This document shows, in pieces, positions 324 through 21,861 of a DNA stretch of 41,485 bases. The notes beneath the pieces were generated by a model, which was not told where the DNA came from, ran no database searches, and worked only from the letters and a program-made list of their open reading frames with translations. Position 1 is the first letter of the stretch. The number at the start of each line of letters is the position of its first letter. The stretch comes from a virus. Its lineage: Duplodnaviria > Caudoviricetes. The translations under genes and the position numbers were made by a program. The stretch is from the IMG/VR virus record IMGVR_UViG_3300005611_000065, positions 1 through 41,485 of that record, one strand, 5' to 3'.

Positions 324-950
324 ATGGAGTTTATAGTTATGGCTCACAAATCGCTAGTTGGAAATAAATATAATATGTTGACAGTTATAGAATATGCAGG
401 GTCAAGTAAAGCAAAAAAGAGGCGATGGCTATGCTCGTGTGAGTGTGGTGGAACTTCTATTGTCACTACCGGAGATTTAAATACAGGAAACGTGAGATCA
501 TGTGGGTGTTTGTTAAAGGTTGCAAACATAACACACGGGATGTCAAGGACAAAAATACACGGCCGATGGCTTGGGATGAGGACTAGATGTCACAACAAGA
601 AATCAATGTATTATAATAATTACGGCGGCAGGGGTATATTTGTTTGCAGTGAGTGGAGGCATGACTTCTCCGCATTTTACGAATGGTTTATATCTAACGG
701 TGGTGATGAAAGCCTTGAAATTGATAGGATCAATAACAACCTTGGATATTCGCCTGAAAACTGCAGGCTTGTGACAAGAGCTGTAAACAACAATAACAGA
801 AGGGAACGTTCTAGTGCTTCAGGAGTACAAGGTGTAAGGGAGAGGCCAAATGGAAGATGGCAAGCGTACAAGTATGTAGACGGGACACAAGTACATATTG
901 GAACATTTAGCAATAAAGAAGAGGCCATCAAGGCCAAACTAAACAAATAA
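324..950 (+). CDS. Free-standing HNH endonuclease with C-terminal AP2 DNA-binding domain
   Basis: WLCSCECG...SCGC zinc motif, YGGRGI, EIDRINNNLGYSPENCR HNH-like core, GV...GRWQAY...HIGTF..KEEA AP2 motif. Confidence 0.88.
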   Translation: MEFIVMAHKSLVGNKYNMLTVIEYAGSSKAKKRRWLCSCECGGTSIVTTGDLNTGNVRSCGCLLKVANITHGMSRTKIHGRWLGMRTRCHNKKSMYYNNYGGRGIFVCSEWRHDFSAFYEWFISNGGDESLEIDRINNNLGYSPENCRLVTRAVNNNNRRERSSASGVQGVRERPNGRWQAYKYVDGTQVHIGTFSNKEEAIKAKLNK

Positions 951-963
951 CAGGAGTAATAAA

Positions 964-1428
964 ATGGCAGATTTATCTGGATTGTGGGGAGAGAAAACCC
1001 AGCAGGAAATGGCAGAAGAGGCAAGAGGCGGCTTTGTATTACTTGCCCCAGGTTGGCATACAACGGTGATTAAAAAAGCAGAGCTGAAAGACACCCAGTC
1101 CGGCGGTAAAATGCTCGTCGTTGACTTTGAGAACGACGCCACCGCACGATTCAATATCAAGAACGCGAGTCAGAAAGCCGAGATGATTGGCCGTCAACAG
1201 CTTGCGAAGTGCGCCACCGAAGCAGGAGTTAAAAACCTGACAGATTCCGCGCAGCTTCACGGGATGCCTGTTGATATCAAAGTTACTGTTGAAAAATTCG
1301 TTAGCAACACGAACGGGAAGGAGCTTGAGTCAAACAATATTGTTGACTTCGCAAAGGCCGGAACCAAGGCAAACGCAAGCGCGGCAAAAGCAACTGGTGC
1401 AGCAACTACAAATAGCGCCCCGTGGTAA
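964..1428 (+). CDS. DUF669-like ssDNA-binding protein
   Basis: LAPGWH..IKKAELK.TQSGGKML OB-like N-terminus, Ala-rich tail ending APW, RBS AGGAG, located next to a Sak4-like gene. Confidence 0.75.
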   Translation: MADLSGLWGEKTQQEMAEEARGGFVLLAPGWHTTVIKKAELKDTQSGGKMLVVDFENDATARFNIKNASQKAEMIGRQQLAKCATEAGVKNLTDSAQLHGMPVDIKVTVEKFVSNTNGKELESNNIVDFAKAGTKANASAAKATGAATTNSAPW

Positions 1429-1451
1429 AGTAATAATCCACTGAATGGAGA

Positions 1452-1490
1452 AGGCCCGGATTAAGGCAACTTGACCGGGCCTGTTTTTTT
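1452..1490 (+). terminator. Intrinsic terminator
   Basis: AGGCCCGG/CCGGGCCT stem followed by T7. Confidence 0.7.
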
Positions 1491-2192
1491 ATGGGAAACC
1501 TTGAATTTATAAATAATGATCCGAACGATATCGGGCTTGCGGTCGACGAGCTAATTGCAGCAAGGCAAAAACAGCGCGGTTATATGGGGTTGTCTCAAGT
1601 CGGGATTGTTAACGAGTGTACCAGAAAAGCATGGTTCATCATGAACGGCAAAGAGTGTGAGCCATTTCCTGGAAGGATTTTAAGGCTATTCCGCACTGGT
1701 GACGATACCGAGCTTAATATTGTTACCGACCTGAAGGATATCGGGTTATCGGTTCACAGCGAGCAAAAAGAGGTCACTGCAACTCAAAACAAGTTAAAAC
1801 TGAAAGGACACATTGACGGGATAGTCGAAGGCCTCGGAGTGTTTGGTTTTGGAGACAAACCGCACCTACTGGAAATAAAAAGCTGCAACGATAAGCGATT
1901 CAAAGAATTAAAGAAAACAGGTGACTATTGCGAATGGGGTGGCGCGTCATATAAAGCGCAGGTCCACATTTACGCTACACTGTTAAAAATTGACAGGATA
2001 TTTACGGTTGTTGAAAACAAAAATACAAGTGAGCGCCATTTTTCAAGATTCCACCGCAACCGTGATTTTGCAATAGATACTTTACGCCTAGCCTTTGATA
2101 TAATGTCCATGCAAGCGCCACCAGAGCCACAACTTCCGGCTAATTGGTATTCGTGCAAGTGGTGCGGATATCGCGGAGTGTGTCGATCATGA
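1491..2192 (+). CDS. Cas4-like PD-(D/E)XK exonuclease
   Basis: GHIDGI...LLEIKS nuclease motifs, QVHIY, N-terminal Cys and C-terminal CKWCGYRGVC cluster. Confidence 0.85.
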   Translation: MGNLEFINNDPNDIGLAVDELIAARQKQRGYMGLSQVGIVNECTRKAWFIMNGKECEPFPGRILRLFRTGDDTELNIVTDLKDIGLSVHSEQKEVTATQNKLKLKGHIDGIVEGLGVFGFGDKPHLLEIKSCNDKRFKELKKTGDYCEWGGASYKAQVHIYATLLKIDRIFTVVENKNTSERHFSRFHRNRDFAIDTLRLAFDIMSMQAPPEPQLPANWYSCKWCGYRGVCRS

Positions 2193-3886
2193 TTTTACGA
2201 CCATACCAGGAAAGGGTGGTTGACCAACTGTGGACTGCGCTAATTTCCGGAAAAAATGCACTGCTTCAGGGGCCGTGTGCTTTTGGGAAATCTGTCACAC
2301 TTGCTACAATTGCAGGGAAGATGGATAGAAGCCATAGAGTATTGGTAATAGTTGATCGGCAGATCCTCGTAAAACAGCTTGTAGAAACTTTTAAAATGGT
2401 TGTTCCAGGTCGCACCGTTGGGATAGCATGTAGTGGTGTTCAGCGAAAAGTAGAGCTTGATTGCAACATAACAATAGCAACAAGGCAGACCCTCACAGGT
2501 AGACTGGGAACGTGTGAACCGTTCAACCTTGTAATGATTGACGAAGCACACCTGCTACCTTTAAAACCAGACGGTGAGCCAGCAGACGACCAATACGGGC
2601 AAATAATAGCGCAAATAATAGAATACAACCCGAGAGTACGCCTTCTTGGCTGCACTGCTACGCCATATTCTCTTACCGCTGGTTATATTTATGGGAATAA
2701 ACACCGTGTTGGACTTGTTCCATATTTTGATGAGCTTACCGCAAGCGTTACCGTTGAAGAATTGACCAAAGGCGGTTATTTGTCTCCTGCGGTCGGTCAT
2801 GTTGTTGAAACAGGAGTTGACCTATCGCAAGTTTCGTTGATTGCTGGTGAATATAATTTAGGCGAACTGTCAACGGAAATGGTTAAGCACTGCCAGACCG
2901 TAAACGACGCAATAGAAAAATATTGCGAAGAGCGAAAAAAGATACTCGTTTTTGCAGTTGATATAAAACACTGCGAGAGTATCCAAAAGGCCGTTCCAGG
3001 TTCAATTGTAATTCATAGCGGACTGTCAAAAAAACAACACCAGCGCAACATGGATGCAATAGAAAGCGGACTGGCAGGAGTCGCAATTTCTGTTGCACAG
3101 TTAAGTATCGGTTTTGATGTTCCAGATGTTGACGCGATAATTCTCGCCAGGCCGTCAAAGTCCACAGCACTAATAATGCAGCAGATCGGGAGAGCATTAC
3201 GGATTGCAGATGGTAAAAAAGATGCAATGATAATTGATCTCGTCGGAGCGACTGAACAGCACTTTGTAAAAAACGATCTCGACAAGCCGAAAGTAATAAT
3301 TCCACGACCGCCAAGTGGTGAGGGTGACGCGCCTTTTAAACTCTGCCCAGGGGAGCTTGACGATGGACTGCTTTGCATGGCAGAGGTTCACCCTAAAGTC
3401 ATCATCTGCCCTCATTGCGGGTATAAGTGGGAAACGCTATACGCTGAGTCATTACCTGGGATGAAAGAGGTTGCATTTGACGCAACGCCACCAGATCCAC
3501 CAGAATGGATTGACGTTATCGGGATAGAAGTTGACATCCACAATTCAAAAAAATCAGGAAAGAATCTCCTGAAAGTTAAAATTGAACTCAACTTACCACT
3601 TGATAGGCACCCATATGTCACAGATTGGATTTGTGGCTATGAGTATTCTGGATTTGCTCTCGAAAAAGGCAAAGAGAAATGGGAGCAGTACTCTGATACA
3701 GACATGCCAGAAGACACAACAAGTATGCTGTGGGATGCTTTGGAAAGCTTCTCGACACCTAAACGAGCGTCAGTATCAAGGCCGGGGCGATTTTGGGAGC
3801 TGCATGACCTTGACTTTGGATCAGAGGACAAAGAAGGCTATGAACACCAGCCAATAACTGCAAATAATGAGGAACTTCCATTTTGA
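2189..3886 (+). CDS. SF2 DEAH-type helicase (RadD/YejH-like) with zinc finger
   Basis: LRPYQ, CAFGKS, DEAH, TATP, IGFDVP, QQIGRALR, CP..C/CPHC. Start chosen at the ATG overlapping the upstream TGA. Confidence 0.92.
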   Translation: MILRPYQERVVDQLWTALISGKNALLQGPCAFGKSVTLATIAGKMDRSHRVLVIVDRQILVKQLVETFKMVVPGRTVGIACSGVQRKVELDCNITIATRQTLTGRLGTCEPFNLVMIDEAHLLPLKPDGEPADDQYGQIIAQIIEYNPRVRLLGCTATPYSLTAGYIYGNKHRVGLVPYFDELTASVTVEELTKGGYLSPAVGHVVETGVDLSQVSLIAGEYNLGELSTEMVKHCQTVNDAIEKYCEERKKILVFAVDIKHCESIQKAVPGSIVIHSGLSKKQHQRNMDAIESGLAGVAISVAQLSIGFDVPDVDAIILARPSKSTALIMQQIGRALRIADGKKDAMIIDLVGATEQHFVKNDLDKPKVIIPRPPSGEGDAPFKLCPGELDDGLLCMAEVHPKVIICPHCGYKWETLYAESLPGMKEVAFDATPPDPPEWIDVIGIEVDIHNSKKSGKNLLKVKIELNLPLDRHPYVTDWICGYEYSGFALEKGKEKWEQYSDTDMPEDTTSMLWDALESFSTPKRASVSRPGRFWELHDLDFGSEDKEGYEHQPITANNEELPF

Positions 3887-4245
3887 AAACAGAGCACAAA
3901 GAACAGGCTGAACTATGCAAATTTTTAAGAGCAAACAGAATTTTTCATGCAGCAATACCCAATGCACAGGCGCTTTCCGGTGCAAACAGGGGTGCAGCTG
4001 TCAGGAACATGGCAAAGCTAAAAGCTGAAGGTTTTCAGAAGGGATTCCCAGACATTCTTGTGATCCTGCCTGAAAAACTACTTGTTATAGAGATGAAAAG
4101 AGAAAAAGGCGGCACAGTATCAAAAGAACAAAAGCACTGGTTAGCGGTCTTCAACACAAAAACAGAATACGCGGAAGCTCACGTTTGCAATAGTGCTGAA
4201 GAGGCAATTTCACTGGTAAAATCCAAATATTCCGCACTGGAATAA
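3883..4245 (+). CDS. VRR-NUC domain nuclease
   Basis: EH.EQ, G...GFPDILV....IEMKREKGG.VS.EQK.W. Confidence 0.88.
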   Translation: MKTEHKEQAELCKFLRANRIFHAAIPNAQALSGANRGAAVRNMAKLKAEGFQKGFPDILVILPEKLLVIEMKREKGGTVSKEQKHWLAVFNTKTEYAEAHVCNSAEEAISLVKSKYSALE

Positions 4246-4249
4246 AATA

Positions 4250-4278
4250 TTGACATACCCTTTTCACGGTGGTATTGT
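4250..4278 (+). promoter_or_regulatory. Strong sigma70-like promoter heading the cassette block
   Basis: TTGACA 4250-4255, 17 bp spacer, TATTGT 4273-4278 with an extended TG. Confidence 0.75.
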
Positions 4279-4309
4279 TTGTTTATGAACTTAACTTTTG
4301 GAGGAATAA

Positions 4310-4441
4310 TTGAAGGCACTTGAGTTAGTAACAGGCGTGGCAATATTTGCACATGCCTGTGTAGCGGTTGTAGTTGGGGAGTACTCTTTTGCGCTTGGAT
4401 TGTTTAGTGGCTCTATAGCGTGGTTTTTGCTTGCGGCTTGA
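4310..4441 (+). CDS. Small hydrophobic protein (43 aa)
   Basis: GGAGG RBS and TTG start; MKALELVTGVAIFAHACVAVVVGEYSFALGLFSGSIAWFLLAA. Confidence 0.55.
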   Translation: MKALELVTGVAIFAHACVAVVVGEYSFALGLFSGSIAWFLLAA

Positions 4442-4507
4442 GCAGTACAACGCTAAGTTCAGCGGACTGCGCTTTTGCAGTTCCGCTGTAATGACTGGTT
4501 ATATTGC
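4442..4507 (-). repeat. attC-like recombination site 1
   Basis: + strand reads AAC-GCTAAG-TTCAGCGG ACTGC...GCAGT t CCGCTG t AA-TGACTG-GTT; about 60 bp imperfect palindrome with extrahelical bases. Confidence 0.8.
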
Positions 4508-4526
4508 GGAGTTTAGGAAAACAGAA

Positions 4527-5399
4527 ATGAGAATAGCCTTACACGATCACGAAAACAATGGCTACCCCAACGTAGCCCTGATGAAACTAAGCGCTTGGCA
4601 TAAGGCCAAGGGTGATTCTGTGGAGTGGTTTAACCAGATGTTTGGCAACTACGACCAGGTGTATTCCAGCAAGGTTTTTACCTGGACGAAGCCTGACCCG
4701 TATTTGCCAAAGGATACCGTTATTGGTGGAACTGGCCATGACATTACTGCAACCCTGCCAGAAGAAGTTGAAAGCATGATGCCTGATTATGGTCTTTATG
4801 ATTGTGACAAGTCATACGGATTTCTTACTCGTGGCTGTATTCGTAAATGCCCATGGTGTTTTGTCCCGAAAAAAGAGGGAAGGATCAGGGCGCACCAAGA
4901 CATTGACGATTTTCTCCAGCACAAAGAAGTGGTGTTGATGGATAACAATGTGCTGGCTCATAAACATGGTATTGAGCAGATAGAGAAAATGGCGAAAATG
5001 GGCTTGAAGGTAGATTTTAACCAAGGGCTTGATGCAAGGTTGATCGACAATTCTATGGCGAAACTGTTGGCATCTGTGACGTGGAAACCGTCGATACGGT
5101 TGGCCTGTGATTCTGTAGAAATGATTGAGCCAATCCGCAAGGCGGTTGAGTTGCTGAGGTGGCATAATGCTACGCCTACACGTTTTTTCTGTTATACGCT
5201 GGTGCAGGATATAGCGGATGCGCTGGAACGGGTAAGGTTTCTGAAAGGGATGAATGTTGACCCTTTTTGCCAGCCTTACAGAGACAAGAAAGGAACGCCA
5301 CCAACAGACATTCAGAGAAGGTTTGCAAGGTGGGTAAACCACAAGGCTATTTTTAAAACTACCCCGTGGGAAGAGTACGGGGTAGCAAAAGCAATATAA
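4527..5399 (+). CDS. Radical SAM-type protein with N-terminal cobalamin-binding-like region (cassette-borne)
   Basis: TRGCIRKCPWC is a CxxxCxxC motif; YPNVALMKLS..HK..GD.V, GGTG, DNN, DFNQGLDARL. True start is likely the ATG at 4527, since the upstream extension just translates attC-1. Confidence 0.85.
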   Translation: MRIALHDHENNGYPNVALMKLSAWHKAKGDSVEWFNQMFGNYDQVYSSKVFTWTKPDPYLPKDTVIGGTGHDITATLPEEVESMMPDYGLYDCDKSYGFLTRGCIRKCPWCFVPKKEGRIRAHQDIDDFLQHKEVVLMDNNVLAHKHGIEQIEKMAKMGLKVDFNQGLDARLIDNSMAKLLASVTWKPSIRLACDSVEMIEPIRKAVELLRWHNATPTRFFCYTLVQDIADALERVRFLKGMNVDPFCQPYRDKKGTPPTDIQRRFARWVNHKAIFKTTPWEEYGVAKAI

Positions 5400-5483
5400 C
5401 GCTAAACTAAGCTGCCGCCCTATGAAACTGACCCCGTAGGGCCGCAGACTATCTTGCGGTCAGCTTGAGTGATTTGTTATGCA
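5391..5483 (-). repeat. attC-like recombination site 2
   Basis: + strand reads TAAC-GCTAAA-CTAAGCTG CCGC...GCGG t CAGCTT g AG-TGATTT-GTTA, with extrahelical T and G. Confidence 0.85.
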
Positions 5484-5700
5484 AAATTATCTTTTTAAAG
5501 TTTCTCTAATGGCTGAAAACGCATGGAGCCGATATTGGGGCAAACGAGTACCGCCCCTGTATTTTGTAGGGAGAAATAAGGCAGAAGCGAAAGAGTGGGC
5601 TACCAACAACGTTAAAGAAGGCTTGTCTGTGAGGTCTGTTTCGTGCATGGCTAGGCAGCTTGCCCCCGCTATTTTTACTGGCGACATTAAATCTGCATAA
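5479..5700 (+). CDS. Hypothetical protein (cassette-borne, 73 aa)
   Basis: ATG lies inside GTTATGCA and the stop lies inside the complementary TGCATAAC. Confidence 0.65.
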   Translation: MQNYLFKVSLMAENAWSRYWGKRVPPLYFVGRNKAEAKEWATNNVKEGLSVRSVSCMARQLAPAIFTGDIKSA

Positions 5701-5716
5701 CAGTGTCAATAAGTGG
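5694..5716 (-). other. att half-site (attI/attG-like insertion point or truncated attC)
   Basis: - strand reads CCACTTATTGACACT-GTTATGCA. The core is complementary to the attC-2 end, but there is no second arm. Confidence 0.5.
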
Positions 5717-5743
5717 AAAAACACATCGAACATGGAGCAGACA

Positions 5744-5977
5744 ATGGAAGAGTTGAAAACATCTCCGGTTACTTTAAAGATAGAGCTAAACGTTGACTGT
5801 CCACACTGCGAAGAATGTTTTGACTTGCTTGAAGAGTGTAGCGTTGACGACGAAGCAGATATTTTTGGCATGGCATTGCCGGACGGCATATGGCACACAG
5901 CACATAAAAAGTTTGAGTTTGAGTTTGAGTGTCCAGAGTGTAAGAAAACTTTCTTGGCAAAAACTATTGAGTGGTAA
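5744..5977 (+). CDS. Small zinc-ribbon protein
   Basis: CPHC...CPEC; GGAG RBS before the ATG at 5744. Confidence 0.65.
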   Translation: MEELKTSPVTLKIELNVDCPHCEECFDLLEECSVDDEADIFGMALPDGIWHTAHKKFEFEFECPECKKTFLAKTIEW

Positions 5978-5983
5978 TAAAAC

Positions 5984-6235
5984 ATGAACCCACAATTCAA
6001 AATACACGGCCAAGAGAGGAAGGCGCTAAAGAAACAGGTTGGACTTTTGAGGCGCAGTATTTCTAATTTCTGGCACCACTGGCAGACAAACGACGATATG
6101 TATAACATTTTTGGACATGAAAATCCATGGCCTAAAGAAGAAGCTGAGAAGCACCACGCAATAATCGTTGCAGAGATAGAAGAGAAGGAGAAGTTGCTTG
6201 CTGTTGCGTATGAAAACTTTGATATGCAAATTTAA
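5984..6235 (+). CDS. Hypothetical protein
   Basis: 83-aa ORF tightly packed in the operon. Confidence 0.6.
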   Translation: MNPQFKIHGQERKALKKQVGLLRRSISNFWHHWQTNDDMYNIFGHENPWPKEEAEKHHAIIVAEIEEKEKLLAVAYENFDMQI

Positions 6236-6243
6236 TTATTTAG

Positions 6244-6525
6244 GTGATATCTGTGAAAATGAAAGTTTGGTGGATTCCGCAATTACCTGGAAAAGCGTTT
6301 GAGGTTAACGTTGAAACTGTGCAAGAGGGCGTGAAGATTATGAATACACTAGCTGAATACGATTTATTTCAGTTTGAAAACAATATCAAGCCGGACTACT
6401 GCAACGTCGGGGGAATAAATGTATTCGACCCCACTGACGATACTGACGGCCCTGATGGATCGTGGGTATCATGGTGGGACGAAGAGACAGGAGAAGATGA
6501 CCCGATGGCATTTGTTGAGGCTTAA
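6244..6525 (+). CDS. P22 gp17-like (superinfection-exclusion-related) protein
   Basis: KVWWIPQ.P.K.F.V.V...EG.....LA.YDLFQ.EN.IKPDY.N.GG pattern recalled from the gp17 family. Confidence 0.65.
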   Translation: MISVKMKVWWIPQLPGKAFEVNVETVQEGVKIMNTLAEYDLFQFENNIKPDYCNVGGINVFDPTDDTDGPDGSWVSWWDEETGEDDPMAFVEA

Positions 6526-6580
6526 GCGTAACATTTATATTACATGACATGTGCAATTAATCACGGAAGGAGATTAAAAT

Positions 6581-6877
6581 ATGAACAGTAAACAAAGAAT
6601 AGATAGTGAGCCTGAAAACGGAGATGCACGGGGTCATGGTGCATCGCCTTGTTGTTCTGATATCAAAGAGTATGTGATGCGGCGCAATGAGGCGTTTTTG
6701 TTACTCGACAAAGATAAGATTGTAAAAATGATGAAAGAGCATGAAATCGAAATCCCAGAAAATGAAACTGTTTTCTGGGCTTCAGTACACATAGCAAGAA
6801 CCAAAATGACCGACTTCAGTAAAGATGTGAAGGCTGAGAGTCAGATGTGGCTACGGGAAAATGGCTTTGCTGTATAG
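6581..6877 (+). CDS. Hypothetical protein
   Basis: AGGAG RBS. The N-terminus overlaps a degenerate attC-like hairpin and the stop lies in the attC-3 core. Confidence 0.65.
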   Translation: MNSKQRIDSEPENGDARGHGASPCCSDIKEYVMRRNEAFLLLDKDKIVKMMKEHEIEIPENETVFWASVHIARTKMTDFSKDVKAESQMWLRENGFAV

Positions 6878-6935
6878 CGCAAAGCTAAGTGACAAACGGC
6901 AGTATCGTTTGTCCAGCTTGAGCGTATTGTTATAT
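6872..6935 (-). repeat. attC-like site 3 (core AAC mutated to AGC)
   Basis: TAGC-GCAAA-GCTAAGTG ACAAACG...CGTTTGT c CAGCTT g AG-CGTATT-GTTA; shares CAGCTTGAG with attC-2. Confidence 0.75.
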
Positions 6936-6954
6936 TTTCAGCCATGGAGGAATT

Positions 6955-7146
6955 ATGAAAGACGACTACAGAAGTGATTATCCCAATGAGCCTATCGGTG
7001 ATGGCAATCAATACTATCGCTGTATATTTTGTAAAATTTCTGATCCACAAATCAACGGCAGACTTGATGGACACTCTACATCTTGCGAGTGGAGAATAAA
7101 AGAGGAAGCAAAACAACACACTAAGCGGAAGAGGAGAGGTATCTAA
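6955..7146 (+). CDS. Small putative zinc-finger protein
   Basis: GGAGG RBS; YYRCIFC...GHSTSC (CxxC..H..C). Confidence 0.65.
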   Translation: MKDDYRSDYPNEPIGDGNQYYRCIFCKISDPQINGRLDGHSTSCEWRIKEEAKQHTKRKRRGI

Positions 7147-7166
7147 AAAATACTTTGATATGAATT

Positions 7167-7424
7167 ATGAGGCTGTTGTATAAAACAAAAATGATAACCC
7201 AAACAGACCTTTCAGAAAAACTAGGAATAAAAAAATCCCAACTCAGCAAGATACTTTCCGGGAAACAGCGGTTGTCACGTAAAATGGCGATTGAAGTCGA
7301 GAAATTAACAGGTATAAATAGAATTGTCTTTATGGATGGCAGCCAAGCTGATATTATTGAAGCGATTGAAGAAATCTATGGTAAAATAAATTTCAATGTT
7401 GGCCGGATAAAGCACGAAAATTAA
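7167..7424 (+). CDS. XRE-family HTH transcriptional regulator
   Basis: TQTDLSEKLGIKKSQLSKILSGK. Confidence 0.8.
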   Translation: MRLLYKTKMITQTDLSEKLGIKKSQLSKILSGKQRLSRKMAIEVEKLTGINRIVFMDGSQADIIEAIEEIYGKINFNVGRIKHEN

Positions 7425-7569
7425 ACGCTGTAATTGTTAAGGCTCGATGCATTTGCGGCACCTACAAACAATCGGGTAGACCTCCAAACATCTCCTTCCC
7501 CGATCCAATCACCCTATGCGCCAGGGCATTTGGTGCTTGGTATTAATCGAGCCACCTGGTTTTTATCTC

Positions 7570-7854
7570 CTACCAAAAACCACCATAATCATTTGAGCGC
7601 TCAGGTAAAGCGTTTTCTATAGCCCTATTTATCCGCTTCATCACATCTTCATGAGCTTCAATATCAATTTCATCTCTGAAGTTGTCAAATATGTAATTCT
7701 GTAATGCTGAAACCAACTTTTCATCCTCTACCAGTTCTCCATCAATAAAGAATTCAAGTTCTTCTGCTACGGTCGTAGCATACGGAAAGCCGTTCTCCGG
7801 CTCAGCTGGGCAGTGGTCTAAAGTTTTGATTTTTATCTCAATTTCTTTTAGCAT
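7570..7854 (-). CDS. Hypothetical acidic protein
   Basis: GGAGG RBS before the ATG at 7854. Confidence 0.6.
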   Translation of the reverse strand: MLKEIEIKIKTLDHCPAEPENGFPYATTVAEELEFFIDGELVEDEKLVSALQNYIFDNFRDEIDIEAHEDVMKRINRAIENALPERSNDYGGFW

Positions 7855-8516: not shown

Positions 8517-8729
8517 TCATCGGCTGGTCACCTCCCCCGGCAAGGCTTCAACGCGGCCTTTCTCGATAAAAGCCAATACGTCTTCTTCGCGGTATCGGAC
8601 AAGCCTTGCACCTAACTTGTAATAAGCCGGGCCTCGGCCCTCGTGTCGCCATGCTTGCGCGGTCTTTGGGGAGATTCCCAAAACTTCGCATAATTGCTTT
8701 TCGTTCAGATTTGTTGGGATGTTCTGCAT
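8517..8729 (-). CDS. Excisionase/AlpA-like HTH (HTH_17) protein
   Basis: LNEKQLCEVLGISPKTAQAWR.EGRGPAYYKLG.RLVRYREEDV.AFI. Confidence 0.85.
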   Translation of the reverse strand: MQNIPTNLNEKQLCEVLGISPKTAQAWRHEGRGPAYYKLGARLVRYREEDVLAFIEKGRVEALPGEVTSR

Positions 8730-11140: not shown

Positions 11141-11401
11141 ATGGTGTTTAAAATGAAATTCGATAAACCAAAAGGACAAAGGCTGCATAGATATTTCAGG
11201 CAAGTGAATGTTGATGGTATGTGGTGGTTGCCAGAATATCAAAAATGGGTTGAACCACATGAAGTTAAAGGAAACCATGCACAATCGTGGTGCAACTGTA
11301 GGACGATTAGAGCGTTTAAGAGGCATCTTCGGATACATCCATACATAAGAGGGAGAGCGTGCCTTGTGTCGCTTTACGAAGGTTACGATGTTTATGCGTA
11401 A
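11141..11401 (+). CDS. Hypothetical protein
   Basis: 86-aa ORF in the operon. Confidence 0.55.
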   Translation: MVFKMKFDKPKGQRLHRYFRQVNVDGMWWLPEYQKWVEPHEVKGNHAQSWCNCRTIRAFKRHLRIHPYIRGRACLVSLYEGYDVYA

Positions 11402-11434
11402 CGTAAAAAAAAAAAAAAAATTGGAGGAAGTAAG

Positions 11435-11972: not shown

Positions 11973-12173
11973 TCAACCAAACTCATCAAGAGAAAGTGCT
12001 TGAGTAGGACACTCATCAAGCATTAACCGTATTGTTTCGTCGTGTTCCTTTCGTGACCGTGGAGAGATAAGCAAACTCCCTCCATGGTCACTGATAAAGC
12101 CGGGTAATATTTCGTCGCAGCGGTGGCAAGATTTGCCGAGACAGGCATATTCATAGATTTTTAGTTCGTGCAT
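11973..12173 (-). CDS. Hypothetical protein
   Basis: Directly follows the endolysin stop; C..C..C...CP motif. Confidence 0.45.
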   Translation of the reverse strand: MHELKIYEYACLGKSCHRCDEILPGFISDHGGSLLISPRSRKEHDETIRLMLDECPTQALSLDEFG

Positions 12174-12638
12174 TTAGCCATTTCTCATTATCTCAGATAG
12201 TTCTAATGCTCGTTCAGGAGTCTGGACCGACCACAACGAATTTAACATCTCGTCCGCTGCCAAGTCGTACCAACAATTTTCAAGATTAATAAACATTTTT
12301 TTGAACTTTAACAGGCCAGAAACGCCGAGCTGATAAGCCATATTAATAAGAACATCCTGCCGCTTGTAGCTCAAACGCTGCCAACATCTTATGACCATCG
12401 GCAGCTTCAACCGAAGCTTTCTGACGCGTTCTTCAAGAATCATAGATGCCTCGCGCTCTGTTATTCCGGCTTTTAAATTTATCCCGTAGCCAATTGTGGG
12501 GACACCGAGCGAATCGTTGTACACAGTCCCAACAAAACCCTCATGTCTTTTCAACTGGCTGATAACGTCATTTATAGCATCCATGCTCCCGGCATGGTCG
12601 GCAAAACTATCAACATTCTTCATCTGCAGTCCATCCAC
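12174..12638 (-). CDS. Endolysin, T4-lysozyme/GH24-like muramidase
   Basis: HEG...VYNDSLGVPTIGYG (E-x8-D-x5-T), NMAYQLGV.GLLKFKKM, S.W..QTP.RA. Start uncertain. Confidence 0.92.
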   Translation of the reverse strand: MDGLQMKNVDSFADHAGSMDAINDVISQLKRHEGFVGTVYNDSLGVPTIGYGINLKAGITEREASMILEERVRKLRLKLPMVIRCWQRLSYKRQDVLINMAYQLGVSGLLKFKKMFINLENCWYDLAADEMLNSLWSVQTPERALELSEIMRNG

Positions 12639-12698
12639 ACGCTAAACAAATACTTGCTCCATCTTGGAGATTGCAGTTGCACTCAGGACATCTCATAT

Positions 12699-13034
12699 TT
12701 AATCCTCATATCCAACACAATGTCTATGCTCGTGCTGGTAAATCCACTCAGCATCAAAAGCCATATAGATTGTACAATTTTGTTTATTGTTTTCCCTGTT
12801 GTATTCAAGCTTAGCACAACCAAACAACGGAGCACCTAATACAACAAGGAGCGGATTAACACCGAGAGCAATACACCGGCTATACACATCGACAGGGCCG
12901 ACCACAAATACAGTTTCATTGAGATCCTCCAGTGGTATTTCTTCCGTCAGGAATGGGTAAAGTTTATCAAGAGGAGATAATATTGTACAGCTTGAAAACA
13001 ATATAGCTGCACATACTGTCAATCCCCTAATCAT
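12699..13034 (-). CDS. Putative lipoprotein with HExxH motif
   Basis: MIRGLTVCAAILFSS-C lipobox; C-terminal HEHRH. Confidence 0.6.
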   Translation of the reverse strand: MIRGLTVCAAILFSSCTILSPLDKLYPFLTEEIPLEDLNETVFVVGPVDVYSRCIALGVNPLLVVLGAPLFGCAKLEYNRENNKQNCTIYMAFDAEWIYQHEHRHCVGYED

Positions 13035-13380
13035 TATCAGGGATGTCACATACCGCCCTGACCATAACAAATACTGGCATAATGAGCAGATCATCCCACT
13101 GTGTATCAGTTGCCTGTATCCAGTTCTCCAGTGGATCAAGAATTTTGTCCCCCCACTTCTGGTAAAATTCCGGATCAGACATTTTCTCGATGATAGCATC
13201 AACAAGCTTATCATCCCATACAAAAGATGTTTTGCCAGTGATTTCTTTTACTGTGTCCACGAGTGCAAGTTTAACTTTCAGAAGATTTTTCTCTGTGATG
13301 ACAGATGCAAATATCTCGTTGGCTACTTTTGTTATGATGGGCTTTGCTAAAAACAGGGCCGTTGTAGCTGAAATGTTCAT
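13027..13380 (-). CDS. Hypothetical lysis-region protein with an internal duplication
   Basis: GAGG RBS; repeated T...WDD motif (TSFVWDDKLV and TDTQWDDLLI). Confidence 0.7.
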   Translation of the reverse strand: MNISATTALFLAKPIITKVANEIFASVITEKNLLKVKLALVDTVKEITGKTSFVWDDKLVDAIIEKMSDPEFYQKWGDKILDPLENWIQATDTQWDDLLIMPVFVMVRAVCDIPDND

Positions 13381-13422
13381 TTAAATAACCTCTTTATGAT
13401 TGTAATATAATTTTGTTAAAGA

Positions 13423-13944
13423 CTACTGTCTTGTTGGACAATTTGTACATCTCTTGATTCGATCAAAAACTTCATACATAGTATCAATTTGGTCATCTGT
13501 CAGTGATATCTTGTCTTTATTCGATTCGTAATACTGCTGAGCGGTGTCTCCGAACTTGTAACCCATTGCAGTCCAATCAATAATCATGTGTATTATATCA
13601 AGACGGTTTCTGACGGTCTCATGGTGATGTGGGTTTTTGTTTTTGTGATGTTCCCATGCTTCGACCATTCCGCTGTTATTTTTATCCTTATCGTTTACAG
13701 AAAAAAACGAATCACGATATTGTACAAACTCTTCCTTTGAAAACTTAGAGACGTCATGCCACTCAACTTCTTTTCTAAGAGTGTGCCACGCCATGTCATC
13801 ACAAACCCACCACATCCCATCACAAGCCACTGACAACTCACAAAAAGCTTTTTTTACATTATTCAGATGCTCTTCCAAGTAGTCTAGATATTCCCTTGTC
13901 TTGTCAATATAATCTTGTCCTTTCATTCTTTCTATAAACGCCAC
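13423..13944 (-). CDS. DUF5662-like HD-superfamily protein
   Basis: WHDVSKFSKEEF, AWEHHKNKNPHH.E, HMIIDW.AMG.KFG. Confidence 0.78.
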   Translation of the reverse strand: MAFIERMKGQDYIDKTREYLDYLEEHLNNVKKAFCELSVACDGMWWVCDDMAWHTLRKEVEWHDVSKFSKEEFVQYRDSFFSVNDKDKNNSGMVEAWEHHKNKNPHHHETVRNRLDIIHMIIDWTAMGYKFGDTAQQYYESNKDKISLTDDQIDTMYEVFDRIKRCTNCPTRQ

Positions 13945-14167
13945 TTAGATAACCTCCTTTTTTAAAGTTGTTTTTTTTTTTGGGGAAATACTTTTCCACG
14001 AACCCACTGTCTGTTAATAATATATTTCTGAGGTGAGCAAGGCTACTAACGTGCTGCCCATTTGCCACTAACACCTGTTGTTTTCCACAATAATTGCACG
14101 TCAAATTATGATTTCCCATGGCATGGAGAAGTGCGCTCAAAGTGCCTTCGTAGGTATGTTCTTTCAT
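13904..14167 (-). CDS. Hypothetical protein
   Basis: TAATG coupling; the 3' end crosses an 11-nt homopolymer, so it is uncertain. Confidence 0.4.
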   Translation of the reverse strand: MKEHTYEGTLSALLHAMGNHNLTCNYCGKQQVLVANGQHVSSLAHLRNILLTDSGFVEKYFPKKKNNFKKGGYLSGVYRKNERTRLY

Positions 14168-14316
14168 TATAGAGAAAAAATCTTTCTGAAAATTTTAATT
14201 ATTAGCGAAACAGGAATCAAAACCTTTTTCACTGTTGTCTTCTCTTTAGGGCCATACGGCTCCTTATGGATATCATCTAACCACTTATAGTCATGGTATC
14301 TTTCGTTGTCGTTCAC
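14167..14316 (-). CDS. Small hypothetical protein (49 aa)
   Basis: Manual ORF from GTG to TAA that fills the gap and is coupled to the next ATG. Confidence 0.4.
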   Translation of the reverse strand: MNDNERYHDYKWLDDIHKEPYGPKEKTTVKKVLIPVSLIIKIFRKIFSL

Positions 14317-14320
14317 GCCT

Positions 14321-14527
14321 TCACCAAAATATCCAACCGAAAGACCTTACTCCAACAAACATCACAACAGCAATTACCGGATGACCAGCGGCATAGACTC
14401 CTTTAAGTAGATCAACATCAGCAACCCACCGAGAAACTTGGTGAGTGTGGTAGTCCTCATCGTGCTGAGCGCAGACCATACCATAGTTGCAATCTGGCCA
14501 CAGTGTACAAAAATCTTTCTTTTTCAT
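14321..14527 (-). CDS. Small phospholipase A2-like protein
   Basis: D.CT.WPD.....C.QHD.DY......R..AD..L motif (CxxHDxxY) and a hydrophobic C-terminus. Confidence 0.6.
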   Translation of the reverse strand: MKKKDFCTLWPDCNYGMVCAQHDEDYHTHQVSRWVADVDLLKGVYAAGHPVIAVVMFVGVRSFGWIFW

Positions 14528-15057
14528 CAGTCTTCAATAGATGTTCCGGCACTGACAGTTTCTTGAGTGTTGTAGGACTCTCGTGTTTCTGACGCTGTGT
14601 TGTAGCTCTCGTTGTTAGCTGTGCTCGACATACTCGCACTCGCTGAATCGCTGGCCGTGACGGTATCACCCATGGCACTAAACGCAGCTTTTGCAACACT
14701 GCCTCCAACAATCCACTGACCGAGATTGAGGACGTTCCCTGAAGCATTGGTAAGAGCCTTGTTCTTGCTCTCAACCTCTGAAATCTGCACGTCAAAGGCA
14801 TTGGTTACTTTACAAGGATCATTGCCGGTAACAGCCAGTAGAGCGTCACCGAACTGTTTTGACATTAAAACATAACCAACTGCATCCTTCGGAACGCCGG
14901 TTAGGTCAATCTTTCGCGCATCATGACAAGCCTTTACTGCTTTTGCTTGATTGTCCATTGCCTCAATATCAAGCTGTGTCAGTGCTGTTTTGCTACATCC
15001 TGAGAACACTATCAAAACAAAGATTCCGCATCCTATTGACTTCCACATCTTCAGCAC
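14527..15057 (-). CDS. Putative lipoprotein
   Basis: IFVLIVFSG-C lipobox; Ser/Thr-rich tail with a repeated ESYNT.ET. Confidence 0.7.
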   Translation of the reverse strand: MLKMWKSIGCGIFVLIVFSGCSKTALTQLDIEAMDNQAKAVKACHDARKIDLTGVPKDAVGYVLMSKQFGDALLAVTGNDPCKVTNAFDVQISEVESKNKALTNASGNVLNLGQWIVGGSVAKAAFSAMGDTVTASDSASASMSSTANNESYNTASETRESYNTQETVSAGTSIED

Positions 15058-15449
15058 TCCTTATTGTTTTGCATTTTATGCAAACATTCTTGCATAGTGT
15101 CAACTTTCTCACAGAGTTTATCTAAAGACACTCTTGTTGCTGCTGCCTCTTTCCGGTACTGCTCGTCTACAATGTCGCGCCGTTCAATAGCATTTTCGAT
15201 GAAAGTGTGTAGTTCTTTGCTTGTGCCTTCGCACCTTGTTTTTGACACGAAATGATCGGAGCTGGACTTTCTTGTCGCGTCTATCCTTGCGTTTAAATCA
15301 GAAACGTCGGCCCTACTTTTATTTGCGAGTTTGTCAATGCTCACACAATTGTTGCCAACTTTTACCGTTAATTTCCCCAGCCAAAAAGAAAGCCCTGAAG
15401 TCTGTACCAGGATAGCAAGGGCAAGCCCTATTGTTTGCGCGTCGATCAC
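15051..15449 (-). CDS. N-terminal TM plus coiled-coil protein (holin/spanin-like candidate)
   Basis: IGLALAILVQTSGLSFWLG TM segment; first gene after the tail fibre module. Confidence 0.55.
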   Translation of the reverse strand: MIDAQTIGLALAILVQTSGLSFWLGKLTVKVGNNCVSIDKLANKSRADVSDLNARIDATRKSSSDHFVSKTRCEGTSKELHTFIENAIERRDIVDEQYRKEAAATRVSLDKLCEKVDTMQECLHKMQNNKEC

Positions 15450-15472
15450 TTTAATCCTCTTCGGTTTTGAGA

Positions 15473-16051
15473 TTAAAACCAGACAATAGCATCTATATCT
15501 ACTTCTTGGCCGTTTTCTATTGCTGCTTTTGTGGTATCATAGATGGTGAAATTCTTACTTGTTCTCAAGTATAACGCTTTCGCCATATCAATAAACTCGC
15601 TATTTGTCATTGAGAAATACTCTATCTCTCCTGACGCGTTCCCAACTTTCCAACACCCAGCGTTTTCGGTGTCGAAAAAAGTGTTTATGCTTGCCTCTGG
15701 TGCTTGCTGTGATAACGCTTCGTTTTGAGTGCCTTGTATGTCGTCCTTTCCACCGTCAGCTGTTTTAAAATACTTACCTGCATATAACAGCGGCACATCG
15801 TTAGCGGCCTTTTTTGCTACTTCAAGGTCTCTTAACTGAACTGAAATCCTTAACGCCTCTGCCTCTTGTGCCTTGATAGCATCAACTTCAGCCTGAGTTT
15901 TTGGGGTTAGCACTCCGTCGTCTGCGGTATAATACTCATTGACCATGCCCCACACAAGCTCTTGCGGCATACATGTCCCGGTAAGTTCTTCACCTTGCCC
16001 TACTCTGTTAAGTCCTGTTACTGTTCCGTCTACTTTATATGCGAATTTCAT
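15473..16051 (-). CDS. Tail fibre-associated protein (DUF4376-like)
   Basis: Position after the fibre gene; Y.GKYF.T.....D.Q, WK.......MT..EF, C-terminal IDAIVW. Confidence 0.6.
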   Translation of the reverse strand: MKFAYKVDGTVTGLNRVGQGEELTGTCMPQELVWGMVNEYYTADDGVLTPKTQAEVDAIKAQEAEALRISVQLRDLEVAKKAANDVPLLYAGKYFKTADGGKDDIQGTQNEALSQQAPEASINTFFDTENAGCWKVGNASGEIEYFSMTNSEFIDMAKALYLRTSKNFTIYDTTKAAIENGQEVDIDAIVWF

Positions 16052-16084
16052 GCGTACCTCTATTTTAGTAAGTTTATTATGTTC

Positions 16085-17056
16085 CTATCTTTGCAATAGT
16101 ACGCTAGTCACAACAACACCTCTTGATACCGTTGCGTACGCCCATATCTCACCGTTATTGTCAGGTACGACAGTCGCACTTATTCCCCCGTCATCAGATG
16201 ATCTATAATAAGATTCAAGAGATGAATGTGATGTACTATTAAGAATCATTCCCCAGTATGATGATATATTCATGGATACTGTACACGCTAAGCACCTCGA
16301 TACAGGTAGGAACGGGGCCAGAGAGAATCCCATGGCGACCGCACCTGTAGCATAACCTACAACTACGACATAATCATACATGTCGCCTCTAGCAGTGAAT
16401 TGAACTATATTTCCGCTCGCATCTGTGAGAACAAATCCAATCCACCTAAGCTGATTGACACTCCCTGCAAGCAGCGTAGTGCCATCAACATCGCTGTCGA
16501 ATTGAATATCCCCTGCATCAGTCACAAAGATATTATATGTCGTATTGATAGCTGGGCTAATTATTGTTGCTGTTGTATCTGCCGGAAGTGTTAAAACCGT
16601 TGATCCGGTACTGTCGTAACAATTTCCCTTTTCTATGTTTATCGTGTCTGTGCTGTTATATGAATATTCTAGCCCTTGGATATTTTCTGTAAGATATTCA
16701 GACACTCTCGGCAATTCTCCTGTTGTCCTTATTTCCTGCCAGTCAGCCGAGACACCAGGCTCTATAGAAGTTATGTCGAGAGTATCGCTTAACAACATCC
16801 AGTATTTGTCGTCATGAGACACTGACGTTGGAACGTCGTGCGCTCCTGTCTGGCTTGACCATGGCCCGATAAAGTGCGCAGATGCAAGAACAACTTCGGT
16901 ACTTGCAAGGCCGCTGACCGCTGAATTTAGTGCTGGAATGAAATCATCTTCCCCAGTGCCTCCTATGAAATCAAGCATGTCTTGAACATTTTCGTCAAAA
17001 TCTACTTGTGTTTGACTCCTGCTAGGTACTGTTCCAATATAAGTTGGCACGCTCAT
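16085..17056 (-). CDS. Tail fibre / receptor-binding protein
   Basis: PSRSQ...FD, F.G.WSSQTGA..VP.SVSH...YW.L....EPGVS..W module; TAATG coupling with the upstream gene. Confidence 0.7.
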   Translation of the reverse strand: MSVPTYIGTVPSRSQTQVDFDENVQDMLDFIGGTGEDDFIPALNSAVSGLASTEVVLASAHFIGPWSSQTGAHDVPTSVSHDDKYWMLLSDTLDITSIEPGVSADWQEIRTTGELPRVSEYLTENIQGLEYSYNSTDTINIEKGNCYDSTGSTVLTLPADTTATIISPAINTTYNIFVTDAGDIQFDSDVDGTTLLAGSVNQLRWIGFVLTDASGNIVQFTARGDMYDYVVVVGYATGAVAMGFSLAPFLPVSRCLACTVSMNISSYWGMILNSTSHSSLESYYRSSDDGGISATVVPDNNGEIWAYATVSRGVVVTSVLLQR

Positions 17057-17988
17057 TAGATAAGCTCCTCCGCTTGTAAGCTGCAATATGATGTGTTTTT
17101 ATTTTGCAATTCTATCGTAAAATCGTTTGTAAATCCATAGATTATCGTTTCTGGAAGTGTTTCTTCACCAACAAATACCATTGGTGTAGATGTGTATTCG
17201 TATAAAACTTTTCTCACGATGTTAACTCTTGAGGTCTCAAGCAGTATTCCATACTCAACTGTTTTATAATTCTTCCGCTTTTCGATTGTTACTTCTTCGG
17301 TCTCTTCGTCTTCAACTTTCCTTGAAAAATCAATTATACCGATGTTAGTACCGTATTCAGCAACACCAACCTCAAGAAATTTACCAACTATCAGCTCTCC
17401 GACCTCGCAAACGTCTGAACCGTTTGAAAATGTAACGGTCATCACTGCGCTTGCGTATGCTGGCAGGTCAGTATAAACAAACTGCTCTTTGTTTGAAAGA
17501 GGCTGAAAAAACCAGTCATAGTATCCGCCGATATCTGACAAGTCTTTCATATCAATATCACGATTATATACTTCAGTGGTTCCGTTAACAATATTTATAT
17601 TGACAGTATCGGCAACAAGTCCAAATCCGGCCACAGAGTTGTAAATCCTGCCCGGTGTTATCTCTGTTGTTATCGTTCCAGACTGTGATGTTTTGGACTT
17701 TGTTTTTTTATCAAACATCCGCCATCTGTTTGTTGCAGATACGAGCGACCAAAAACCACTTTCATCGTCACTGTTGTATATTGTGTCAGGTGGATAATTT
17801 CCTGTATTAGCAACGGTGCAAGAATAAATATTATGGACTCCATCGTCAGTGACCATCACAAGGTCATCAATGATATAGGCAGTGGCAATATTCCACTCCG
17901 CCTCATCATTTTCAGGAACGTCAGAACTGGTCAACCTTGCATCGGTCATCTCCATAGGCGGGATGATTTCCATTATTCCAGTTGGCAT
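17056..17988 (-). CDS. Tail tip / distal tail protein
   Basis: Follows the tape measure; LTSS.VPEND..EW, ATNRW.MFD, GIIDFSRK motifs. Confidence 0.75.
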   Translation of the reverse strand: MPTGIMEIIPPMEMTDARLTSSDVPENDEAEWNIATAYIIDDLVMVTDDGVHNIYSCTVANTGNYPPDTIYNSDDESGFWSLVSATNRWRMFDKKTKSKTSQSGTITTEITPGRIYNSVAGFGLVADTVNINIVNGTTEVYNRDIDMKDLSDIGGYYDWFFQPLSNKEQFVYTDLPAYASAVMTVTFSNGSDVCEVGELIVGKFLEVGVAEYGTNIGIIDFSRKVEDEETEEVTIEKRKNYKTVEYGILLETSRVNIVRKVLYEYTSTPMVFVGEETLPETIIYGFTNDFTIELQNKNTSYCSLQAEELI

Positions 17989-17989
17989 T

Positions 17990-20900
17990 TTATGCGGCCC
18001 TCGTCTCTATTCCATCGCCCTCAATTCTGCGAAGTATTTTCCTTGTTTCGTTTGTGTTCTTTGCTATCTGAAAGTTTCCTGTCATTATGTCAGCACGTAA
18101 TAACCGTATTTCCTCAATCAGTGCGCTGTTGTCTCCGTCGCGCCCGCCTTTTATCTCAACTGGAACGCTACCGTCTCGCAATGGTATAACGGCCTCAGTT
18201 CCGTGGAGTTCAATAGGGTAGCCTTGATCCGGCCCGGAGAAAATACCACCGTATCGAGCCGCCATATCACCAGGGTCATCACCGATATTACCCATGTCAC
18301 CGTCGAATGTGTCAAGTGCGCCAGATGTTTCTGCTTCTGTCCCTGACAGGTCTCCGCTGTAGCCGCCAGGTGTATTGTCAAATTCAGTTCCGTAATCAAT
18401 ATCGTAGCCTATAGGGTCAGCAAGATCCTCAACACCTTCAGGCCCACCGTGTGCTGCCTCAACCTGTGCTTCCATTGCCGCGAAGTCTACGTTTCCGGCA
18501 AAATGGCCGAAGACCTCAGCAACGACACTTGGGAATCCAAGCTCTTCGGCTTGTTTTGTTCGGTTTGTTTGGAACTGGTCACGAACGCTTTCCATGTCTC
18601 GCATATCGGCAAGATCCATCAAACCATCAACGCCAACGGCAACAGCTAGAGCCGCGATTGCTGCCGCTGGAGCGCTTAGTGCTCCAAGCAGCCCAGCCAA
18701 AGCACCACCGAGCTTTCCGGCTGTTTGCGCTGTCTGATCTAGCCCCATTGTGTCCATCGCTGTGTCTAGTGCAGCATTTGTTATATTCGAGGCAATGTTT
18801 GCAGGACTTGTTATCGCGTCTAGTGTGGCCTCTGCACTGATACCAGTAGCTATACCAATACCACCAAGCAACCCGTCTTTACCGAACTCGTCACCTAGAT
18901 TTCCAAAGAAATCACCAAGAAAACCACCAGTCTGGTCAATTCCCTCTTGTGTGCTCAGGTCAGCCCCTAGAGCATCGGCAACGCTATCAAAAGTAGATGA
19001 TACTGTTGACTGATCTATGGAAGTATCACCATTTAACGCGTCCCTGATCCTGTCGGACTGTTCCCGTGGGATTACAATCTCTCCCTTTTGCAGAACCGCT
19101 GGAATTTCATCATGTAAGAGCGCTTGGCCGTTGTAATCACCGCCAGCGTTCATGGTTCCGTCGTGGAAGATAAAAGAAGAGGCAACATCGGCAACTTCAG
19201 CGGCTGCCCAAGCAGCGGCCATCTCTGCGATTATCTCAATCATCTTTGATAACATCGTAGTCCACAAGCTATCCCACGCCTTGCCAACGTCGTCAAACTC
19301 ACCAATGAGGACATTTTGTAGCCAGTCGCTCAAAGTTGACTCCAGGCCATCACGAAGTTTCAGAGCTGCATCATATCCTCGCTCTGCCCAGGTCTCCATT
19401 TCGTCGCCTGACTTTTTGAGGGCAAGATTTATTCCATCGAAGAAGTCGCCTGTTGCAAGTATTCTCTCGTCTTGCAGGTCTTTATACTTTTTGTTGTACC
19501 ACTCATCCACGGCGGCTTTGTCGTCTATTAACTCGTAGTACTTTTCTCTCTCGAAGCCTAGCAAAGCAACTTGGGCTTTAAAATGGTTCTGTGCCTGCCC
19601 GTCAAGGTCAGCATACATATTGCGGGCAGCGTTTGCCTTATCCATTGCGAGCCGTTCTGCTGCTTCTAGCTCTTTCTGCAACGCCTCTTCTGCTTCCTTT
19701 GCGTGCTCCTTGACAATTTGCAGTGATTCATAACGCTCGTCAGTCGTAATCCTGATAGCCTTTGCCTGTTTTTCTTCTGCTTCGATTTGCTTGTTTGTGG
19801 ATGCAGTTGTCTTTTCGACAGCGGTGGTGTACTCACCCTGAAAACCAAGCAAATTGTCAATTTCAATGATGGTCTGATGGATTTCTGCGTTTATTCTTTC
19901 CGTCTCGTTCCGATACCCCTTGGCTGTAACGCCGCCACGGGCATAACTGTTGCCGATGTTATCAAGCTCAGTCCGTAGATCAGCAAGCTTGAATTGCAAC
20001 TTGTCCACACCGGTTGCGTTGATCTTTTCCCATTCTTCCTGCCAACTGTCGCCAAATTTCGCCGCAACCGCAAGCATATGTAGTCCTTCTATAGAGTTAC
20101 CTACAAGCCCAATGGCCTTGACAGATAGCCCGGCAGCGTCAACTATTCCAGAAAACAGGCTTATAATTCCTTCACGGTTCTCCTCTATAACTTTCGCAAG
20201 TTCAAGGATAGACTCTGCAATGTTGTTTGTGGCTCCGGTTGTCTCGTTTGCACCACTAACGACTGAAGCCCAAACGGTGGAAAGATCCGTCATAGCCTGC
20301 GATACTGTGGTTTGCATCTTGGAGAACTCTTCATCAATTGAAGATGCAGCACCGCTAAATGCTTCCATCATTATCTTGCTTGTGATTTTTCCTTCTGTTG
20401 CCATGTTGCGAAGTTCGCCAATATCTACTTTCAGGTGATCTGCTAAGATTTTGGCGATACGAGAAGAGTTTTCGGTGACAGAGTTAAACTCCTCACCCCT
20501 CAAAACACCGGAAGCCATACCTTGAGAAAGCTGGAGCAGGGAAGCCGCTGCTTCTGTCTGAGTTGAGCCTGAGATTACAGTGGCCTTGTTCAGAGTCTCT
20601 GTTATTCTCAAGAGTTCAGATTGAGACGTGCCCATACTCTCGGTTGCTCTTGCGAACCGAGAATAGAGGTCAACAGATGTTGAATAGGCGGCGTGTGATT
20701 TAAGGGAGACTTCATACAAGCCTTCCTGTACTCCCATTAATTCGCTGCCAGAATCAGTTACAAGCTTGAGTTTGTTGTTGAGGAGGGTGTAGTTGTCTGC
20801 GAGTGCAAGCGTTTCTTTTACCGCCCACGCCGCGCCAACGGCTGCAAGCGTGCTTGCGAGGACTTTTGAAGCCTTTGACAATCCATCTGTGGCCTTTTCT

Positions 20901-20995: not shown

Positions 20996-20997
20996 TG

Positions 20998-21800: not shown

Positions 21801-21829
21801 TTGTTATCCCCTAAATGATGTTATAAAGT

Positions 21830-21855
21830 AAGGGCCGCCATTCCAAACGGCCCTT
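21830..21855 (-). terminator. Hairpin after the major tail gene
   Basis: AAGGGCCG/CGGCCCTT stem. Confidence 0.5.
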
Positions 21856-21861
21856 TTTGTT

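Follow-up and report, generated by a model that had tools for sequence, protein, structure and literature searches.

A cassette array with mirror-image genes on a host-type attI core in a tailed phage

The 41,485 nucleotides analyzed here (the window, which is the whole of IMG/VR record IMGVR_UViG_3300005611_000065) carry a real CALIN that has a host-type attI core and mirror-image cassettes. Two attC-bounded gene cassettes are stacked on a 21-bp bacterial attI core with their genes opposite in direction to those of bacterial cassettes and, judging from the sequence, an integron integrase (IntI) of the host probably inserts and excises them in trans. The sites, their polarity, the cassette borders, and the identity of the core to the chromosomal attI of one phylum are established below, as is the presence of different cassettes next to that core in other phages.

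The record is that of a tailed phage, with terminase, portal, capsid, tail, helicase, and primase genes; it is linear and, by CheckV, 61% complete. The array sits 3' of a VRR-NUC nuclease gene in a rightward-reading series of small genes, and the coordinates of its parts are collected in Table 1. Elsewhere in the record, a DUF285 repeat protein of 656 aa (28151-30118) is encoded between the portal and head morphogenesis genes, and a run of about 14 A's (11406-11419), possibly an assembly or slippage tract, follows the ORF at 11141-11401.

Table 1. The array and its surroundings, in window positions
Feature	Position	Strand	Description
Candidate sigma-70 promoter	4250..4278	+	TTGACA-17-TG-TATTGT; reads into the array
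Hydrophobic ORF, 43 aa	4310..4441	+	Between candidate promoter and attC site 1; no PHROGs or NCBIfam family
attC site 1	4445..4504	- (top strand = minus)	Model score 22 bits, E 0.0014; predicted crossover 4450|4451
Cassette A	4451..5399	+	949 bp; body of attC site 1, then radical SAM gene; ends 10/10 complementary
Radical SAM protein gene	4527..5399	+	290 aa; CxxxCxxC; phrog_9298; stop TAA on the crossover
attC site 2	5394..5482	- (top strand = minus)	Model score 44 bits; predicted crossover 5399|5400
Cassette B	5400..5700	+	301 bp; body of attC site 2 and 73-aa ORF; ends 8/8 complementary
ORF of cassette B	5479..5700	+	73 aa; ATG within the R box, stop TAA on the crossover
attI core, stripped	5699..5719	-	AACAGTGTCAATAAGTGGAAA on the + strand; predicted crossover 5700|5701; no intI behind it
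attC site 3, probably damaged	6872..6935	-	Model score 28 bits; core TAG|C, not TAA|C
Tentative second half-site	7112..7131	.	By eye: AAC, 5 nt, ACTAAGC, GGAAG; upstream of HTH gene

A preliminary description of this DNA had reported two full attC-like hairpins, and both are confirmed, with coordinates and sequences correct. Sites 1 and 2 show the R''-L''...L'-R' inverted repeats of attC, with AAC/GTT cores and spacers of 5-6 nt. Each has an extrahelical base in an 8-nt L box (GCTGTAAT versus GTTCAGC in site 1; GCTTGAGT versus ACTAAGC in site 2, with the extra G on the + strand), which makes + the bottom strand, and on that strand both hairpins fold better than shuffled sequences (z -2.6 and -2.3). 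The form of site 2 is that of the aadA7 bottom strand as given in Table S3 of Qi 2023. A covariance model of our own, trained on 28 attC sites taken from bacterial genomes, gave three matches at E < 0.01 in the 41.5-kb window, all on the minus strand, the next best reaching 13 bits. They comprise both hairpins and a third site that the preliminary description had missed. Because site 2 served as the template for the pattern that collected the 28 sites, the independent matches are sites 1 and 3 only. Site 3 also folds (z -3.1 versus shuffles) and lacks the AAC/GTT core of attC; its TAG is the stop codon of the ORF at 6581-6877. Together with the tentative half-site that follows it, which has no attC-model match, it may form a second, decaying mini-array beyond the attI core. 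The stretch at 6520-6580 was rejected as an attC, as it does not fold. Site 2 found no blastn match among 50,697 phage records, and Rfam held nothing relevant. A site very similar to site 1 is present in L004, a locus with a relative of the radical SAM gene. There, at 2690-5260, at least six inverted attC sites form a chain whose end is a different half-site, AACCACTGATTAACACG, which may represent another attI family.

Could such hairpins be mere look-alikes of attC, that is, regulatory or homologous-recombination linkers such as terminators or RNase sites? We consider this very improbable. They do sit between co-transcribed genes, and attC sites may contain weak terminators according to Qi 2023 (PMC9892861), but a terminator scan listed neither site 1 nor site 2. 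Moreover, linkers would leave unexplained the complementarity across each gene, its covariation between phages, and the identity of the end site to an attI linked to IntI, all described below.

The extra G in the right arm of the + strand predicts crossover at AA|C in the left arm of each site and therefore the cassette borders given in Table 1. The AA|C borders drawn in the preliminary description are the same, and its claim that the ends around each gene match each other better than the other arm of their own site was borne out: 4498-4507 pairs with 5391-5400 at 10/10 positions and with its own arm at 8/10, and 5476-5483 pairs with 5694-5701 at 8/8 and with its own arm at 5/8. With AAC/GTT held fixed, the chance of the 12 further matches is about 1e-7. 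Two relatives of the radical SAM gene, in L001 and L004, are boxed alike, with ends that have changed yet are still complementary. Of 21 rows compared along arrays, 15 show a 4/4 fit between the GTT arm and the next site, and 2 show such a fit with the own arm; likely false and skipped sites are among the misses. Empty junctions or cassette losses in relatives had also been proposed as evidence. The two close relatives examined show neither: L307 (99.7%, 4110-6088) keeps both cassettes, and L308 (99.98%, 1008-5534) keeps the array up to its contig end at 5534. For the upstream VRR-NUC gene, none of 28 candidates among viral contigs proved to be a relative, which precluded an empty-site comparison at the locus, and no relative with an empty site was found among viral contigs by this route. 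To the right of the array, directly downstream of the attI core, lies a GP17-like superinfection-exclusion gene (6259-6525; PF17420, E 5e-28). Its status as a cassette was not upheld, six of eight related loci scanned having no attC-model match. A likeness seen by eye between the ORF at 5744-5977 and a cassette gene of L225 was dropped, as tblastn gave it no support.

What do the cassettes carry? The protein of cassette A has the invariant cysteines C104, C108, and C111. Its predicted structure (pLDDT 87) matches MiaB, RimO, and cobalamin-dependent radical SAM enzymes (E ~3e-7, TM 0.6-0.65), so that the modeled fold resembles theirs; its profile had no sequence match in the PDB, and the protein had none in Pfam or NCBIfam. 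The family numbers 4115 proteins, and named homologues include Desulfomarina and a Porphyromonadaceae bacterium at 70%. Among 36 related loci inspected of 95 fetched, attC sites flank the gene on both sides only in L001 and L004, where the sites differ, and the other 34 are without attC. In a 24-row tree (stops in the matched range led to the removal of two rows), the three cassette-borne alleles fail to group as one clade (AU p 0.0026). Either a phage gene was captured repeatedly or the sites were lost repeatedly, and the tree is compatible with both. The 73-aa protein of cassette B has one relative besides itself, 87% identical.

The preliminary description also overlooked the polarity of these genes. 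Those of A and B are antisense to the attC top strand and have their stop codons on the crossover; on the bottom strand, each lies 3' of its own attC and runs to the next crossover. This is the mirror image of a canonical cassette, in which the gene is on the attC top strand, upstream of its own attC. How common is this layout? One attC pattern found 80 viral and 129 bacterial-genome loci before filtering; duplicates and sites with less than 400 nt of flank were then removed, and ORFs of at least 180 nt ending at the site were scored. Viral loci were inverted only in 26 cases and canonical only in 8 (n=63); bacterial-genome loci, in 5 and 33 (n=65). The contrast is strong (Fisher p 5.6e-8), for loci that are not phylogenetically independent and with orientation calls that rest on ORF length. 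This symmetric test replaced a first, noisy count (44 versus 31 of 76). PHROG matches were found for 13 of 46 inverted viral ORFs versus 1 of 32 canonical ones, and the named cargo at viral attC loci includes DNA methyltransferases. At the first cassette next to an attI core (described below), the inverted ORF was the longer in seven of eight phage arrays; at host loci the canonical ORF was the longer in 25 of 30, the inverted in 4, with 1 tie. The inverted layout is typical of phages in this comparison. Host-oriented cassettes, one of them ClpP-like, are also present in L001 and L222, which suggests exchange of cassettes between phages and the host pool. Phage arrays would then follow a polarity rule opposite to that of bacterial integrons and yet apparently exchange some cassettes with them. 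A literature search, mostly outside subscription journals, turned up no paper on the inverted layout.

From where might backwards genes be transcribed? No stretch of 3900-7600 fits the promoter consensus better than the one proposed earlier at 4250-4278 (10/12, with an extended -10). It stands as a candidate only, because the number of sites in the scan is at chance level (9 versus 7.0 +/- 3.0 in shuffles). Right of the core there is one minus-strand consensus site (6257-6229, 9/12), likewise at chance level, and the cassette genes are antisense to it. In class 1 integrons, the choice of strand makes a captured gene sense to the integron promoter, as described in PMC2727003. The phage genes differ, being antisense to the integron side and sense to the candidate promoter at the far end.

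The array ends on a stripped attI core. It occurs once in the window, and does not fold in a test against shuffles. Like an attI site, it is an R box at the array end, has no hairpin, and is conserved upstream of intI in hosts; an accessory region beyond the core (DR1/DR2 in attI1) was not found. Three pattern scans located 14 distinct viral sites besides that of the window. Seven of them, on six contigs, end attC arrays (L220, L221, L222, L224, L225, L226, and L344; the last attC of L221, L222, and L226 was located by eye), and the other seven are not at arrays and look like chance. A more degenerate pattern among the three contributed four viral loci, and these are not at arrays. L001 has an array that ends in almost the same 18 bases as that of the window. 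In each of the eight phage arrays, AAC is preceded by four variable bases, and these pair with the GTT arm of the last attC, at 32/32 positions overall, a score reached by 4 of 40,320 permutations. The earlier proposal that the cassettes were stacked at a half-site near 5701 is therefore supported: the half-site is a host-type attI core that also ends other phage arrays. L220 and L226 belong to one 40-kb contig with two separate arrays, each ending in the same core; one of the two lies, by eye, between terminase-type genes. The likeness of the window to host attI ends after about 21 bp. L220, L221, and L224 keep more, and because this longer conserved region of theirs and of hosts is missing, the phage core may recombine poorly; cores of similarly short length end different arrays in L222, L225, and L226.

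In bacterial chromosomes the same core stands next to integrases. One Thermodesulfobacteriota genome (L367/L403) has, 160 nt ahead of an intact IntI (404 bits, cut-off 265), a site identical to it at 21/21 positions. Among 401 genomes of that phylum, 9 match the core with at most one mismatch (control, 2), and one of these matches lies 159 nt before an IntI of 331 aa (414 bits, cut-off 265). Within one order, 7 of 11 IntI loci have a 16-20/21 core match 155-161 nt upstream; of the other four, three are cut by contig ends and one is a more distant IntI. In the class of genome G261, the core is found in 28 of 301 genomes (control, 0). Of 30 loci fetched, 12 show IntI homology behind the core: in three it is near full length, and the other nine have only fragments. 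The remaining 18 (among L359-L388) carry the core without such homology, and decay of the integrase seems common in that host class. The L403 integron (430-6320, genome G547) has the exact core, the intact IntI, and canonical cassettes, and its array contains two identical group II intron reverse transcriptase genes, likely of attC-targeting introns.

The phage locus resembles these sedentary chromosomal integrons (L339, L348-L357, L367/L403; TIGR02249) in its core and its AA|C crossover, and resembles L403 in that the junction is complementary to the first attC (GTTCTCTC/GAGAGAAC). It differs in lacking both the intI 155-161 nt behind the core and the longer attI region, and in its antisense genes, host cassettes being mostly canonical (25/30 loci). 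Our attC model found no site in three host integron regions; a looser script found long-stem host attCs in 8 of 21 loci. These likenesses would make the host of the phage a member of Thermodesulfobacteriota. Against this, neither a CRISPR spacer nor a prophage tying the phage to the proposed host class turned up in its 301 genomes, searched with the window except 12001-21999, and the named radical SAM homologues include a Porphyromonadaceae bacterium as well as Desulfomarina. DNA searches of the 301 genomes gave short, weak matches in 6 and 7 genomes; among those inspected, the match in L389 is a ribosome-binding region and that in L390/L395 is a radical SAM gene without attC. A scan of seven loci for repeats revealed no CRISPR array.

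Is the array still in use? It might be a fossil, assembled by IntI formerly and now frozen, with its attI cut to 21 bp and neighboring sites decaying. The truncation itself, the TAG|C core of site 3, the absence of cassette loss in L307/L308, and the 34 of 36 inspected radical SAM relatives without attC are what such a relic would leave. Nevertheless, the ends of both cassettes are perfectly complementary, including bases outside the core, and the core matches a host attI at 21/21 positions, while the flanking phage genes share nothing. Cores just as short end different arrays in other phages, and truncated attI sites of class 1 and 2 integrons, to which the shortened phage site is comparable, still work and can recombine with IntI1, according to PMC12901181. 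We regard the frozen array as unlikely.

Which recombinase could act here? The locus is a CALIN (at least two attC within a few kilobases, no nearby intI) and not a complete integron, there being no intI beside the attI. The phage-integrase family PF00589 had no match in the 61% complete record, tblastn with IntI had none either, and no tyrosine recombinase gene was seen in it. The earlier statement that the phage genome has no integron integrase accordingly holds for this record and not for the whole genome, of which about 39% is missing. An IntI or other tyrosine recombinase of the phage's own might be encoded in the part of the genome missing from the linear record, and one of 50 viral records, G017, does contain an IntI-like N-terminal fragment (E 1.7e-25). 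Against this, the place where hosts have intI, 155-161 nt behind the core, is taken in the phage by an unrelated 77-aa ORF; none of the 50 records scanned, of 79 with such an attC type, passes the IntI cut-off; and IntI was found in none of six other attI-bearing phage records (28-82% complete). A phage-borne enzyme is, on balance, quite improbable. The record also contains an HTH regulator (7167-7424) and an excisionase-like gene (8517-8729) with no integrase, so that a temperate lifestyle is possible and its integrase may be in the missing part of the genome.

The use of a host IntI in trans, as first proposed, has gained support, as far as comparison of sequences goes, from a core that is of host type and ends other phage arrays with covarying junctions. 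In this scheme, the host IntI would fold the + (bottom) strand of each attC, cut it at AA|C, and recombine it with the core, new cassettes entering at 5700|5701. Cassette B, furthest from the candidate promoter, would then be newer than A, because entry is at that point. Because transcription from 4250 would read through the array, backwards cassettes would be expressed and host-oriented ones would be antisense in the phage.

How does this compare with known systems? Qi 2023 (PMC9892861) reports 17 phage CALINs, recombination by IntI1 of five of six phage attC sites tested, and a cryptic prophage whose CALIN begins with a Shewanella-type attI. Like those CALINs, the window has single-gene cassettes and no nearby intI, with two or more attC sites inside 3 kb. 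It is like prophage M16-3 in having a host-type attI at the CALIN start and unlike it in that M16-3 is a cryptic prophage with a complete integron of its own. Compared with the cases described in Qi 2023, here a bare 21-bp core recurs next to unlike neighbor genes, without IntI, and mostly with inverted cassettes. The array of phage TJE1 is canonical, unlike that of the window. Phage PH101 has attC sites of the form seen in the window, and these recombine with IntI1 (Qi 2023, PMC9892861). By our own check PH101 also has the same inverted layout; the main text and part 1 of the supplement of Qi 2023 make no remark on gene versus attC polarity in it. In PH101 (KR534323 76200-78000, L328), a pair of identical attC sites stands before near-duplicate gene starts, and another two sites alternate with genes apparently on the opposite strand. 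We found no other paper on phage attC arrays, again in a search mostly outside subscription journals. The phage sites share with class 1 attC and attI1, as described in Bouvier 2009 (PMC2727003), the R and L boxes, the 5-nt spacers, and the extrahelical G, a base that picks the recombining strand.

What might such arrays mean for the phages that carry them? Tentatively, phages of sulfate-reducer-type bacteria might parasitize the integron of their host. They would keep only a 21-bp dock, set against their own transcription, and repeatedly build a mirror-image cassette pool from ordinary phage genes. Reversed polarity could then act as a filter, host cassettes being silent in the phage and phage cassettes silent in the host. 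Phage use of host IntI has been suspected and not shown, and the L403 IntI and the identical phage core name an enzyme-site pair for it. The 21-bp signature would also tie these phages to a host phylum. The origin of gene cassettes is, to our knowledge, an open question, and matched cassette and non-cassette alleles of one gene bear on it. If the proposal is true, the making of new cassettes could be followed in these arrays, because phage relatives of their cargo outside cassettes are numerous and the three cassette-borne radical SAM alleles do not group together.
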